Part shown: positions 34,768 to 59,719 of the stretch, piece by piece | How the letters are laid out: every line of letters begins with the position of its first letter | Numbering within the stretch: the first letter of the stretch is position 1 | Assembly: GCF_055900595.2 (NCBI RefSeq) | Contig: NZ_CM148325.1 | DNA: 64,000 bases | Reading direction: 5' to 3' (one strand) | Translations under genes and position numbers: made by a program | Notes under the pieces: model-generated | Databases searched by the model: none | Told to the model about the DNA's origin: nothing | What the model saw: only the letters and a program-made list of their open reading frames with translations

Positions 34768-35613
34768 TCAGCCACGTCTTGCACGCTGGATGTCGCGTAT
34801 CCGCTGTTTTTCTGCGCGCGCCATCAGATACCAGGCGATAAATCCGACAATTCCGACCGCGCCGAGGATCAATGTTGCCAGGGCGTTGATTTCCGGATTT
34901 ACCCCCATCCGCACGCTGGAGAAGACCAGCATCGGTAACGTGGTGGCTCCTGGCCCGGAAACAAAGCTGGCAATCACCAGATCGTCGAGCGACAGAGTAA
35001 AAGCCAGTAACCAGCCAGAAATGATCGCGGGCATGATCATCGGTAGCGTAATGACGAAAAACACTTTCAGTGGCGTCGCACCAAGATCCATCGCTGCTTC
35101 TTCTATCGAGCTATCCAGTTCCCGCAGACGCGACGAAATAACGACTGCCACATAAGCCGTACAGAAAGTGACATGCGCCAGCCAGATGGTGAGCATGCCT
35201 CGCTCCGCAGGCCAGCCGATGGCATGTGCAAGTGCGACGAATAACAACAACAGCGACAAGCCTGTGATGACATCTGGCATTACCAGCGGCGCGGTGATCA
35301 TAAAGGCAAAACCATTTGATCCGCGAAACCTGCCAAAACGCACCAGCACTACCGCCGCAATCGTCCCGAGGATCGCCGCTGCCGTTGCCGCACAGGCTGC
35401 AATTGTCAGGCTTAAACCAACCGCGCTCATCATCGCGTCATCACGCAGTAATTCGCCATACCAGCGCGTTGACCAACCCGCCCATACCGTCACCAACTTC
35501 GAGCTGTTGAATGAATAGATCACCAGCATCAGCATTGGCGCGTAGAGAAAGGTGAAGCCCAGCAGCAAAATCACAATCCGCCAGGGCGAACGAACCACCG
35601 GTAAATTATTCAT
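34768..35613 (-). CDS. potI: Putrescine ABC transporter permease PotI
   Basis: 281 aa from MNNLPVVRSPWRIV; start overlaps potH stop. Confidence 0.9.
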   Translation of the reverse strand: MNNLPVVRSPWRIVILLLGFTFLYAPMLMLVIYSFNSSKLVTVWAGWSTRWYGELLRDDAMMSAVGLSLTIAACAATAAAILGTIAAVVLVRFGRFRGSNGFAFMITAPLVMPDVITGLSLLLLFVALAHAIGWPAERGMLTIWLAHVTFCTAYVAVVISSRLRELDSSIEEAAMDLGATPLKVFFVITLPMIMPAIISGWLLAFTLSLDDLVIASFVSGPGATTLPMLVFSSVRMGVNPEINALATLILGAVGIVGFIAWYLMARAEKQRIRDIQRARRG

Positions 35614-36563
35614 CCGTGTTCTCCCACGCTTTTTTGCTGATGCTTGTGGAACCACATTATCGGCACAATTAGCAGCAGCAACATGATGATCGCTACCGCC
35701 GAGGCCACCGGCCAGTCGCGGTTATTGAAAAACTCCTGCCACAGCACGCGCCCGATCATGATGCTGTCCGGGCCACCGAGCAGTTCAGGGATCACAAACT
35801 CGCCCACAGCCGGGATAAACACCAGCATCGATCCGGCAATAATCCCGCCTTTGGTCAGCGGCACGATCACAGTAAAGAACGTTTTCAGCGGTCGTGCACC
35901 GAGATCCAGTGCCGCTTCCACCAGCGAATAATCAATACGAATCAACGCGGTATAAATCGGCAGCACCATAAACGGTACATAGGCATAAACAATGCCGATA
36001 TAAACAGCCAGGTTTGTATGCAGAATGGTCAGCGGCTGGTCGATAACTCCCAGCCACAGCAGAAAGTTATTCAGCACGCCGTTATTTTTTAATATTCCCA
36101 TCCAGGCATAGACGCGGATCAGAAACGAGGTCCACGACGGCAGGATCACCAGCAGCAATAAGATATTGCGGGTCGAAGGCTTACTGTGCGCCACCGCCCA
36201 CGCCAGCGGATAGCCGATCAGTAAACAACAAATTGTCGAAATCGCCGCTACCTGTAACGACTGGAGATATGCATCGAAATAGAGCGGATCGTCAGTCAGT
36301 TGCAGGAAATTACCAAGATTGAGGGTGATGGAAAGTTGCCCGTCAGCCCACTCCATCAGTTCGGTATAAGGTGGAATAGCGCGCGCCATCTCCGCCAGAC
36401 TTATTTTAAAGACGATCAGAAATGGCAGCAGAAACAGTAAGATCAACCAGATATACGGCAACGCAATGACCAGTTTGCGCCCATGCTTCATTTGCAGCTG
36501 CGACAACCACAGCTTAAATCCGCCCGGCGGTTTCGACTGGGCAGCAGGTTCAAGTGTACTCAT
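35610..36563 (-). CDS. potH: Putrescine ABC transporter permease PotH
   Basis: 317-aa polytopic membrane ORF; operon position. Confidence 0.9.
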   Translation of the reverse strand: MSTLEPAAQSKPPGGFKLWLSQLQMKHGRKLVIALPYIWLILLFLLPFLIVFKISLAEMARAIPPYTELMEWADGQLSITLNLGNFLQLTDDPLYFDAYLQSLQVAAISTICCLLIGYPLAWAVAHSKPSTRNILLLLVILPSWTSFLIRVYAWMGILKNNGVLNNFLLWLGVIDQPLTILHTNLAVYIGIVYAYVPFMVLPIYTALIRIDYSLVEAALDLGARPLKTFFTVIVPLTKGGIIAGSMLVFIPAVGEFVIPELLGGPDSIMIGRVLWQEFFNNRDWPVASAVAIIMLLLLIVPIMWFHKHQQKSVGEHG

Positions 36564-36572
36564 CTTTGCTCC

Positions 36573-37706
36573 TTAAACCGTCAACACCACACAGCTGTCC
36601 ACTTCCCAGCACAAACGCACTTCGTCGCCCCAGGTCGGTAACCCTTTGCGATAACGATGGGCGTTTTGTAGCTGGGCGCTAATCATTTGCCCGCTTTTTA
36701 GACGAACGTGATACACCGAAAGATCGCCGAGATAGGCAATGTGCATCACCTCCCCTACCGCGAAGTTACAACCATTGGCGGGCGGTGCTTCGCAAAGCAT
36801 GATTTTTTCCGGCCGCAGCGCCACATGCACCGGCACGTTATCGACCACCGAAGCATCTACATCAACTTTCAGTGGATGCACCAGCCCCGGCGAATAAAGC
36901 ACCAGACCATCTTCCTGACGCTCTTTGAGTACACCTTCAAAGACGTTTACCGAACCGATAAATTCAGCACTGTAGCGCGTGGTCGGATGCTCGTAGATCT
37001 CTTCCGGCTCGCCAATCTGGACAAATTTCCCACGATTCATAATGGCGATACGCCCCGCCATCGTCATCGCCTCTTCCTGATCGTGAGTAACCATCACGCA
37101 GGTCACACCGACACGTTCCAGAATATCCACCACTTCAAGCTGCATCCGGTCACGCAGTTTTTTATCCAGCGCGCCCATCGGCTCGTCGAGCAGTAATAGT
37201 TTCGGACGTTTGGCGAGGCTTCGGGCCAGCGCCACACGCTGTCGCTGACCGCCGGAAAGCTGATGCGGTTTGCGTTTGGCGAACTCCTGCATATGCACCA
37301 GCCCAAGCATCTCATTGACCCGGCTGGCAATTTCCGCTTTCGGCAATTTGTCCTGTTTCAGGCCAAAAGCGATGTTCTGTTCCACGGTCATATGCGGAAA
37401 CAGCGCGTAAGACTGAAACATCATATTGATAGGGCGCAGGTAAGGCGGTACCTGTGATAAATCGACGCCATCGAGCATAATCTGCCCGGCAGAAGGTTGT
37501 TCGAAACCTGCCAGCATACGCAGCAGCGTGGACTTGCCACAGCCGGATGCGCCCAGCAGCGCGAAGATTTCGCCTTTATAGATGGTCAGGCTGACATCAT
37601 CGACCGCATGCTGACCATCGTAAGATTTAGTCAGATTACGGATTTCTAATAGCGGCGTCAGCGCCTTACGGGTTTTCGCCTGGGGGCGAGGGATAGCGTC
37701 ATTCAC
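36573..37706 (-). CDS. potG: Putrescine ABC transporter ATP-binding protein PotG
   Basis: 377 aa from a GTG start (MNDAIPRPQ); Walker A GASGCGKST, signature LSGGQRQR. Confidence 0.9.
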   Translation of the reverse strand: MNDAIPRPQAKTRKALTPLLEIRNLTKSYDGQHAVDDVSLTIYKGEIFALLGASGCGKSTLLRMLAGFEQPSAGQIMLDGVDLSQVPPYLRPINMMFQSYALFPHMTVEQNIAFGLKQDKLPKAEIASRVNEMLGLVHMQEFAKRKPHQLSGGQRQRVALARSLAKRPKLLLLDEPMGALDKKLRDRMQLEVVDILERVGVTCVMVTHDQEEAMTMAGRIAIMNRGKFVQIGEPEEIYEHPTTRYSAEFIGSVNVFEGVLKERQEDGLVLYSPGLVHPLKVDVDASVVDNVPVHVALRPEKIMLCEAPPANGCNFAVGEVMHIAYLGDLSVYHVRLKSGQMISAQLQNAHRYRKGLPTWGDEVRLCWEVDSCVVLTV

Positions 37707-37800: not shown

Positions 37801-38913
37801 TTATTTTCCGCTCTTCACTTTGGTCCACGCGCGGGTGCGCACACGGTCGATTTTCGGATCCTGCACTTTCAGAGTGAACAGCTTCGCACGGACATCCGCA
37901 GGCGGGTAAATACCGGGGTTATCACGCACTTCCGCGCTTACCAGCGGCGTAGCTTCTTTGTTCGCGTTGGCATAGAACACATGGTCAGAGATATGCGCTA
38001 CGACATCCGGACGCAGCAGGTAATTCAGGAACTGATAAGCTTCGTCTTTATTTTTGGCATCCGCAGGCATGGCAAATACATCAAAGAATGCCATCGCCCC
38101 TTCTTTCGGAATCGAGAACGAGACATTCACGCCATTCTTTGCTTCCTTCGCGCGGTTTGACGCCTGCCAGACATCGCCCGCCCAGCCAATAGCGACGCAG
38201 ATATCGCCGTTTGCCAGGTCGTTAATGTATTGAGATGAATGGAAATAACGAATGTTCGGGCGCAGCTTTAACAGCAGATCGGTTGCCGGTCCGGTGTAAT
38301 CATCTGCTTTAGTGCTGTTGGGATCTTTACCGAGATAATTCAGCACGGTAGCAAACACTTCTTCCGGTGCATCAAGGAAAGAGACGCCGCAGCTTTTCAG
38401 TTTTTCCAGATTTTCAGGTTTGAGGATCAAGTCCCAGCTATCGACGGGCGCGTTTTCACCCAGTACAGCTTTGACTTTATCGACGTTATAGCCAATCCCG
38501 GTCGTCGCCCACATATAGGGCATAGCAAATTTATTATCCGGGTCATGTTTAGCGACCAGCTTCAGCAGTTCCGGGTCGAGATTCTTCCACTCCGGCAATT
38601 TGTTTTTATCCAGTGGCTGGAAAACTCCCGCTGTCAGCTGGCGTTCAAGAAAGCTTGCTGACGGCACCACCAGGTCAAACCCGGTGCTCCCCGCCATTAA
38701 TTTTCCTTCCAGTACTTCGTTGGAATCGAAAACATCGTAAACGACTTAAATACCGGTTTCTTTTTCAAAATTGGCCACCGTATCCGGGGCGATATAATCA
38801 GACCAGTTATAGATGTGGAGTGTTTTTTGTTCAGCCGCGAGCGTGCCGACAGAGACGGCCATCAGAGCACCCGCAACCAGACCCGATAGCCATTTTTTAT
38901 TTAAGGCGGTCAT
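37801..38913 (-). pseudogene. potF: Putrescine periplasmic binding protein PotF, interrupted by an in-frame TAA at codon 56
   Basis: The two minus-strand ORFs 38746-39063 and 37801-38697 are in the same frame, separated only by the TAA at 38746-38748 (+ strand tta); the translation reads ...[32 protein letters not shown]...; full frame would be 370 aa from [12 protein letters not shown]. Confidence 0.8.
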
Positions 38914-39263
38914 ATCTCTTTCCTTCTGAAAGTTCGTTAACAAACGAACAAAAGTTGTCACACTGAAAGATATGCAATATTCGTGCATATTTTTTATCGG
39001 CTCGGTGTAAGAAAAGAGAACTCTCTCCCGGCCAGCACTGCTCGCTATATAAAAGCATCGCAAGAATAACTTTAGCCAGGGTTTGAGACTATAGCTCGAT
39101 TTAAAAAACGGTATTTAACAAATTTTTATGCGTATTTGCTCTATGTGATAAAGCCAAATCGGCACAAGAGAAGTGAAATAATCTTTAAGAAGAGGTTAAA
39201 AACAGCAGATAATTTTGCAGCACGCAGTCACTGCGGCAGCGACTGCGTACTCTAAAGGAGTTA

Positions 39264-39740
39264 TCAGTGGAGGAAATAGTTTTCGGTAACGTTGTTTTGC
39301 CCTTCATCGTCAGTCGGTAACAGCAGTTGATGGGCATTAGCTTCAAGAATGACCATCGAAATCTGCTCTTCGCTCTGACGCACGAACCATGCAAACTGCT
39401 CATAGGTTACGCCCTGCATAACGGATAAAGACTGGCAAACCACCAGCTTTGGCAGATTATCATCCTGCATATCAAGAAATGCTTTCACGGTCAGCGAACT
39501 GGCATTGATGGCTGATAAATCCGCCGCCAGCGGTAACACGGCTGAAGGTCGGACTTCCGCCATGGCAGAAAACAGGATCGTGTTATCGATCAGATCGATT
39601 TTGGCATCAAAGACACCGTCGAAATTCTGCATATGGGGCAGATGCAGAGCCTGACAGTTATCACATTCAAAAAAACTCATCCCCAGGTCATCGAGCCATT
39701 GACGCAACGTATCCAGACCAGGAACGACCAGCGATGTCAT
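39264..39740 (-). CDS. ybjN: YbjN-family protein (putative sensory-transduction regulator)
   Basis: 158 aa from MTSLVVPGLDTLRQW; synteny between potF and rimK. Confidence 0.88.
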   Translation of the reverse strand: MTSLVVPGLDTLRQWLDDLGMSFFECDNCQALHLPHMQNFDGVFDAKIDLIDNTILFSAMAEVRPSAVLPLAADLSAINASSLTVKAFLDMQDDNLPKLVVCQSLSVMQGVTYEQFAWFVRQSEEQISMVILEANAHQLLLPTDDEGQNNVTENYFLH

Positions 39741-57370: not shown

Positions 57371-59719
57371 CTACTCTTTTACTAATTTTCCACTTTTATC
57401 CCAGGCGGAGAACGGCATGGGTTTCTGGTACAGATACCCCTGAGCCTGAACACATCCTAATTTGATTAATTCGCGCGCAACGTCTTCGCTCTCTACGCCT
57501 TCCGCAATCACCGGGATCCGGTTATAGCGTGCCAGATCGAAAATAATGCGCACAATTTTCCCCGCAGTACCGAAAATATCGCCGGTAAATTGCGAGTCCA
57601 CTTTTATACTGTCTGGATTAATTTCATAAAAACGTTTCAGGTTTGACAAACCGGTGCCAAAGTCATCAATCGATATCCGTACCCCTTGTTTACGCAGTTG
57701 TTCAATATTGAGATAAAAATGTTCATTAATTCGCTCGATCACAGTTTCAGTGATCTCAACACAGAGGCTGTTCGCCTTCAGGCCATTTTCTTTCATGATG
57801 GTGGTAAAACGCTCATGAAAGTGTGGTTCGTTTAACTGCCAGGGCGAAACATTAATATGCAGTAAGAAACCGTCCTTCAGCGACGCACGCTGACTAAAAT
57901 GTCTAAATTCACCCATTGCCGTTTTAATAATCTGATAACCCAGCGCATTGATAAACCCGATATCTTCAGCAATGGTAATGAACTTCAGCGGTGAAATGAT
58001 CCCCCGCTCCGCAGACACCCAACGGCACAACGCCTCCGCGCCCAGAATGGCGCGGGTGTTAATATCAACGATCGGTTGATAGACCAGGAATAGTTCGCCA
58101 ATTTCCATTGCATGGCGAATATTACGCGCAATCCAAATATTCTCTTCTATTTCGTTGAGCTTCGCGTCATCACAGAAAATAAACTCTGAGAACATATGGT
58201 CACGGATACTGGAAATCGCCAGTTTCAGTTTTTCTGCGTAACTCCAGGCGTTTTCTCCCTGCAAAGGTTCACAAATAGCAGACTTATGGATGCGCAGATT
58301 GCGGTAGCCAAAGCTGCTGTCAAAATCGTTTATCGTCGCTATCTTACGGGTAAACGTCTGGACATTTTCCCGGCACAGGAGTAAATAAAGATCGGCATTG
58401 AATGTCACGATATCGCAGCATTGTGCATATTTCTCGGCAATTCGCTGACACAGTTTTCTGACGATTTTATTACGCTCATCGACACCAAACACCGCTTCAA
58501 CGGCTTCCAGGCCACACAGTTTGATGATCCCCACAGCCAGATACTGATTATTGTTGGACTCAATAATCGCCATATTTTTAATAAAACCGCTTTCTTGATC
58601 GTAAGAGATCAGCGAGAGCAATTTATTCGAACGTTCAATTTCGGCATCTTTCATTTCCGCGATCGAATTTTTGATGCTGATAATCTCTTTCGCATCGCCT
58701 TCGCGAATTTTCAGAGCCTCGATTTGATCCGTTGAGTCGGGCAAAAATGCCAGCGTATTAACCAGCTCGGTCATTTCAGAAAATTGCCGACGGAACACAC
58801 GAGTGGTCATTAAATAAACCACCAGCAATACGATAATAATGAAAGCAAACGGCAGATAAAAAAGTTTATCTGATGCGTTCAATAAATTACCGCCAGGATA
58901 ATAAAAATAGATTTCGAATAATGCGTTGTTTGGCACCGCTGATGTTTTTTCGATATATTCAGTATCGACAGAATCAATAATATTATAATTGCCTTCGCTA
59001 TTATAAATAATCAGTTTTTCACGAGCGAGTTGATTCTTGGCAATGATCTCATGGCCTTATTTCAAAAATAGAACTTCATCATTAGCGCTGATTTGATCAA
59101 GATACTCGTTCAGATATCGCCAGTTTAAATCGACATGAATTTTATCCACCACTAACAAATCGTGATCTTTGCCGTTGATGCGTAGCGTAAAAGAGATACA
59201 TTTTTTACCCGGACGATCAAAGCAATTGTATGCCGGATTCCAGCTGTTGTTAGAGTCATCTGAAGCCACAGACCACGGTCGTTTCGATGGGTTAAAATCG
59301 GCAAAAATAACCCGCCCTGACTCGTCGACAAGCGGTCCATTTACTTGTTCCTGATGATAAACAGCGATTTTATCATTTGCCCTCCGTGAAAAGAGATAAT
59401 ATTTATTATCATCAAGTACCAGTCCCACCGAGTCTAAAAATGGCATCATTTCCATTTTAAGGATCACAGCGCGTTGAATCTCCTCTGTATTTTTTAATAA
59501 ATACAGTGAGTCCTTTAATGTCAGGGCCGAACGTTCAATATCTTTAAAGAAATAGCCAACGTTTTTCTGAATAAGTTCAAAGCGGCTATCGGCACGTTTT
59601 ACCGCGCGTTCCGATACCAGTTGATAGTTAATGATGAAAAAAAGGCCAATAAATGACAGTGCTGCCAATAAAAATAAAATTATCAGCCTTATCTTTATCT
59701 TTTCGTATAAACTCAGCAT
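57371..59719 (-). pseudogene. pdeI: c-di-GMP phosphodiesterase PdeI (YliE), interrupted by an in-frame TAA at codon 221
   Basis: ORFs 59057-59797 and 57371-58936 are in the same frame; my translation of 58937-59056 has no stop, so the only interruption is the TAA at 59057-59059 (+ strand tta), reading ...NDEVLFLK*GHEIIAKNQLAREK...; EAL motif (GAEALCRW) lies downstream of the stop; full frame from MLSLYEKIKIRL would be 782 aa. Confidence 0.8.

Follow-up and report, generated by a model that had tools for sequence, protein, structure and literature searches.

An inherited AAA-to-TAA nonsense change at codon 56 of potF in a lineage of Escherichia cryptic clade I near ST485

ABC importers of the PotFGHI type rely on a binding protein for substrate delivery, and in Escherichia coli K-12 this protein is PotF (b0854; PDB 1A99, 6YE0), encoded in the gene order ybjN-potF-potG-potH-potI-ybjO. 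Lineage-specific pseudogenes that owe their origin to a single nonsense change are common in Shigella, in host-restricted Salmonella, and in E. coli clones. E. coli also imports putrescine through PuuP, PlaP, PotE, and YdcSTUV, and synthesizes it as well (PMC8674398). In an engineered K-12 strain, deletion of potFGHI left extracellular putrescine unchanged (PMC8674398), and deletion of potF in W3110 caused a partial defect, with surface motility down 40% (PMC11968103). The literature was searched for descriptions of potF as a pseudogene in E. coli, and no report was found of the allele considered here, in which the codon for lysine 56 of PotF has become a stop (K56*).

This allele was found in a stretch of 64,000 bases (hereafter the window) that carries the same locus as K-12 in the same gene order, with a potF-potG-potH-potI operon that is collinear with the annotated loci of both K-12 and the complete genome Z0117EC0005 (Table 1). 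The interrupted gene is an orthologue of the characterized E. coli PotF, as residues 27–370 of its translation align end to end with PDB 1A99 (E = 2.5e-234), the mature chain of which begins at A27, and its DNA is 99.8% identical to potF as annotated in the closest genomes (WP_000126061.1) and 94.1% identical to that of K-12. Translated from 38913 to 37801, the gene contains a single internal stop, at codon 56, where tta on the plus strand (38746–38748) is read as TAA on the minus (coding) strand, and the remainder of the 370-codon frame is intact. In contrast to K-12 PotF, the full-length protein cannot be produced by normal translation, and with the signal peptide and both lobes no longer joined in one uninterrupted frame, the gene is an orthologue of PotF that would not be a functional member of the family. 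The first-pass annotation had placed an in-frame TAA at this codon, gave lysine as the residue at the same position of the K-12 protein (ETGIKVVYDV), and proposed a single-base change from AAA. All three points hold, since the stop is present in both the letters and the translation, K-12 potF and the 1A99 mature chain have the lysine, and AAA is found in the closest complete genomes and in K-12 (GGT ATT AAA GTC). The A→T change lies at coding position 166.

Table 1. Position and description of the features discussed in the text, all in window coordinates.
Feature	Position	Strand	Description	Basis
Hypothetical gene between ybjP and ybjQ	25831–27600	minus	589 aa; annotated "hypothetical protein" in Z0117EC0005	
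potI	34768–35613	minus	permease, intact; 2 amino-acid differences from K-12	mapped from Z0117EC0005
potH	35610–36563	minus	permease, intact; 1 amino-acid difference from K-12	mapped from Z0117EC0005
potG	36573–37706	minus	ATP-binding subunit, intact; 5 amino-acid differences from K-12	mapped from Z0117EC0005 annotation
potF pseudogene	37801–38913	minus	370-codon frame with terminal stop, broken at codon 56	translation
Remnant ORF from Met73	37801–38697	minus	298 aa, in-frame, without signal peptide	ORF list and sequence
Premature ochre stop of potF	38746–38748	minus	TAA from AAA (Lys56); A→T at window 38748	
Residual N-terminal ORF	38749–38913	minus	55 codons: signal peptide (codons 1–26) and 29 mature residues	ORF list
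ybjN-potF intergenic region	38914–39263	minus	5' of potF; contains one SNP, 39192	
pdeI	57371–59719	minus	premature ochre stop Q221* at 59057–59059	

The ancestral state of the codon is evident when potF is searched in the 5,426 complete E. coli genomes of RefSeq: the sequence matched 5,419 of them, 5,416 at a coverage of at least 80%. Because most records are only 90–95% identical to it (4,573 records) and identity of at least 99% is reached in only eight genomes, the potF of the window is a minority haplotype among complete genomes, a divergent cryptic clade I allele unlike the potF of most E. coli. Each of the eight closest genomes is 99.8% identical to the window across the full gene and has AAA at codon 56. 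In the two whose potF was aligned, Z0117EC0005 and E200086, the differences from the window are two, namely the change at coding position 166 and a synonymous TTT/TTC difference at codon 346. Relative to the nearest potF allele, no non-synonymous difference other than AAA→TAA is present. The TAA is a genuine single-base nonsense change in potF.

The relatives of the window also identify its source. The window aligns with Z0117EC0005 in a single gapless block that takes in all 64,000 bases and contains 17 mismatches, K56* included, of which 14 are coding (seven synonymous, five missense, and two nonsense). The eight closest genomes lie about 17 SNPs from the window in 64 kb. Seven of them belong to Global Enteric Multicenter Study (GEMS) isolates, and five of these seven (100117, E200086, E400634, E500002, and E600003) have been typed as cryptic (I), ST485, OND:H45, and eatA-positive (PMC13064198). 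Since the window is collinear with Z0117EC0005 and its GEMS relatives are typed in this way, its source belongs to Escherichia cryptic clade I and is closely related to ST485, and its potFGHI genes are therefore only 94–95% identical to those of K-12 in nucleotides. A divergent clade I haplotype fits the results of a pan-genome study that lists potF-H among "high divergence orthologs," together with artI-Q, nfsA, poxB, and rlmC (PMC12595684). Divergence from K-12 is mosaic along this part of the window, as each of the four pot genes lies in the 94–95% range and the adjoining ybjN (39264–39740) is 99% identical; this pattern would be compatible either with the divergent haplotype of clade I or with a boundary left between ybjN and potF by old recombination.

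For a one-letter difference of this kind, the relevant null is a false base call rather than chance, and it is recurrence in independent assemblies that settles the base call. An error of sequencing or assembly in a strain that truly has AAA might be suggested by the single base that separates potF from the nearest complete genomes, but the identical TAA is carried by at least three other independently made assemblies, namely GCA_965259665.1 (loci L005 and L011, with three to four further SNPs relative to the window), GCA_965258375.1 (locus L006, with two SNPs and a 3-bp in-frame insertion in nfsA), and ERZ25021421 (locus L010, with two SNPs and a 1-bp deletion in potH). These three assemblies differ from the window at two to four other sites per 10–21 kb, and the change itself is a substitution that alters the length of no base run. 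The exact 55-aa N-terminal product is found on 174 public contigs (247 index blocks), and 130 contigs (171 index blocks) have the exact 298-aa remnant, compared to 410 for this protein allele in its intact form (WP_000126061.1), counts that are to be read as orders of magnitude only, as they pool NCBI, ENA, and Logan and one isolate may recur. All three sources contribute contigs with truncated products, the longest of which measures 5.49 Mb. Because independent assemblies with the identical TAA differ from the window elsewhere, the stop has been inherited and has diversified since its origin and is not a sequencing error, an explanation that was rejected as extremely improbable. The error had been raised in the first-pass annotation together with a comparison to related strains, which might have revealed the same TAA in a differently organized gene; the TAA was indeed found in other strains, but within a potFGHI operon organized identically.

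Within this group, the intergenic SNP at 39192 is common to the window and L010 and is absent from the other TAA assemblies and from Z0117EC0005. The nfsA insertion of L006 (L006:3092–3094, corresponding to window position ∼40819) gives a product of 241 rather than 240 aa.

The allele was also sought with 41-mers centered on the mutation, for which megablast seeding requires the variant base to be present. Neither the TAA 41-mer of the window nor a TAA 41-mer in the K-12 context matched any of the 5,426 complete genomes, although the wild-type 41-mer, used as a positive control, matched 5,395 of the 5,426 (exactly or nearly), with exact matches in 4,854 records.

The lesion is young. Relative to K-12, 66 of the 1,113 nucleotides of potF differ, but only three amino acids in addition to the stop, and because of this disparity the sequence points clearly to purifying selection on potF until very recently. 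The mutation is of recent origin within an Escherichia cryptic clade I sub-lineage near ST485, was inherited vertically, and is an ordinary lineage-specific pseudogene with nothing exotic about it. It resembles the nonsense pseudogenes of other clones in that a one-base change in a conserved core gene is common to a clonal group, is absent from close relatives, and has left the neighboring genes of the operon intact. It does not resemble wholesale genome decay, as the 64-kb window is free of IS elements and rearrangements and is collinear with an intact relative. Decay of the Shigella type, which the absence of the source from the complete E. coli genomes had suggested, was accordingly rejected on the grounds that the window can be aligned collinearly with a genome labelled E. 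coli, lacks IS elements and indels, and has cryptic clade I ST485 genomes as its closest relatives.

A stop codon need not abolish a protein if it is read through, whether by an ochre suppressor tRNA encoded elsewhere in the genome or in a context-dependent manner, and enough PotF might then be made for a working PotFGHI. Such readthrough could be suggested by the fact that the two premature stops found in the window, potF K56* and pdeI Q221*, are both TAA and that potGHI is still intact. TAA is, however, what random first-position changes in the common codons AAA and CAA are expected to produce, and a conserved recoding site is contradicted by the absence of the stop from close relatives, with AAA in all eight of the closest genomes, and from the 5,426 complete genomes. 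A search for tRNA genes within the 64-kb window found one, an ordinary tRNA-Ser (GGA). TAA is the most efficiently terminated stop codon in E. coli, and ochre suppressors are rare in natural isolates. We consider readthrough to be very improbable, and the stop is almost certainly inactivating, which would make potF a null allele.

The consequences of a null allele can be followed from the sequence of the gene. Translation would halt after 55 residues, and cleavage at A26/A27 would leave a 29-residue peptide that could still reach the periplasm. The 55-codon ORF takes in W37, S38, and Y40 (within HIYNWSDY), which are described as residues of the putrescine-binding site of the 1A99 structure. 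The next in-frame ATG after the stop is that of Met73, at 38697. A GGA-rich stretch resembling a Shine-Dalgarno sequence, GAAGGAAAATTAATG, lies before it, with GAAGGAAAATTA 5' of Met73 as a plausible Shine-Dalgarno sequence. Reinitiation at this codon would yield a leaderless cytoplasmic fragment that is missing the first 46 mature residues, W37, S38, and Y40 among them. Neither product would serve as a periplasmic putrescine-binding protein, and an intact PotG2HI translocator would be left without the partner that delivers its substrate. Because this type of importer depends on a binding protein and none is expected, PotGHI should be inactive for uptake, and the high-affinity uptake of putrescine through PotFGHI would be lost. 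In addition, ∼950 nt of potF mRNA would go untranslated, which may lower the expression of potGHI via Rho-dependent polarity. The earlier statement that "the putrescine importer" loses its binding protein is supported by the sequence as far as the predicted loss is concerned, but its wording overstates the case, as several importers exist.

Given the other routes of putrescine import in E. coli, the allele is probably near-neutral, and its persistence and diversification would be explained if these importers, together with endogenous putrescine synthesis, make up for the loss of PotF. A potF null is expected to be viable with subtle phenotypes, which fits its persistence in a diversifying lineage. 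A second potF-like gene may also be present elsewhere in the genome. Taken as a whole, we regard it as very likely that the locus carries an inherited AAA→TAA nonsense allele that renders potF null and persists with little effect on fitness.

The remainder of the operon was described as intact in the first-pass annotation, and potG, potH, and potI are indeed full length with zero internal stops and few amino-acid differences from K-12 (Table 1). Their state fits a recent loss of potF, one possible frameshift in an A-run of potH in L010 aside, and would equally fit a PotGHI translocator that is still used with another binding protein. Relaxed selection in potGHI was considered on account of the potH difference I80T and was rejected, as the exact PotH sequence of the window is common (at least 1000 contigs), which places the I80T change on the branch of the relative. 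In L010, an A-run of potH is short by 1 bp (L010:12613 in ERZ25021421, window position 36085); this deletion splits the gene into ORFs of 163 and 155 aa, and is either secondary decay of an orphaned operon or a homopolymer assembly error. A consensus scan for an internal potG promoter, for a terminator after the stop, and for promoter sites upstream of potF gave sites that did not rise above those of shuffled sequence.

A selective explanation for the loss of potF must also be weighed, in which inactivation of PotF-dependent putrescine/spermidine uptake was positively selected in the niche of this lineage and the null allele spread to a sizeable sub-lineage as a result. Among contigs of this protein allele, the truncated form accounts for roughly one quarter to one third (130–174 as opposed to 410 intact), although a single clonal expansion with a hitch-hiking neutral allele accounts for these counts equally well, and the fixation of pdeI Q221* in the same lineage suggests drift in a recent clone instead of selection acting on polyamine uptake in particular. 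A second lesion at exactly the same potF site was found in L007 (GCA_053182365.1; L007:5160–5175, window position ∼38746), in which a +1 T insertion gives GGTATTTAAAGTC where the wild type has GGTATTAAAGTC. The lineage of L007 is unrelated, being 96.3% identical to the window over 10 kb. Its lesion is like that of the window in site and in its identical 55-aa truncated product, but arose independently as a frameshifting insertion in a different genetic background. A 42-mer carrying the +T frameshift matched none of the 5,426 complete genomes. Because the TAA and +T alleles are both absent from these genomes, and potF is near-universal in them, the loss of potF is rare across the species, which speaks against an adaptive loss. 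Further short N-terminal fragments of PotF (54–92 aa) also occur, each on tens of contigs, and could be counted in favor of recurrent loss, but many are labelled "partial" and may be contig ends. Selection for the loss of potF is possible but unlikely, and the coincidence of site in L007 is the observation that lends it weight. A broader form of the same proposal, that potF has been inactivated recurrently under positive selection in gut Escherichia (K56* and the +T of L007) with PotGHI retained, either because putrescine or spermidine import through PotF carries a cost in the niche or because a different binding protein now works with PotGHI, is less likely again, and we hold it to be quite improbable. 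The near-neutral persistence of an inherited null allele therefore remains the preferred explanation.

The short PotF fragments are an observation in their own right. N-terminal products of various lengths (54, 66, 71, and 91 aa, for example) are each found on tens of E. coli/Shigella contigs, and may represent contig ends (e.g., at IS insertions) or further independent truncations.

The K56* allele matters little alone, but is a clean case of a core transport operon in which a recent pseudogene marks a lineage. As a SNP, it is diagnostic for a cryptic clade I sub-lineage near ST485, the closest relatives of which include eatA-carrying isolates from childhood diarrhea in GEMS. Genomes of this lineage should be annotated with potF as a pseudogene, and PotFGHI should be removed from metabolic models. 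Strains that naturally lack a functional potF could also be used to gauge the share of PotFGHI in polyamine homeostasis, surface motility, and colonization beyond K-12.

Two other features of the window deserve mention. The first is a hypothetical gene between ybjP and ybjQ, a position at which K-12 is not known to have a gene. Its product has weak pentapeptide-repeat matches (Pfam, E about 0.002), no PADLOC match, and a partial, far sub-threshold similarity to the Hailong effector HalA (26 bits, compared to a cut-off of 250). The second is pdeI, in which codon 221 has changed from CAA to TAA at window position 59059. In the complete RefSeq E. coli genomes, the 601 bases around this stop have no perfect match, the best match containing one mismatch. 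The exact 220-aa product is found on 217 contigs, compared to 55 for the exact intact allele, and Q221* is lineage-wide. Q221* lies before the GGDEF-like and EAL domains of this c-di-GMP phosphodiesterase, and the truncated product would lack both.
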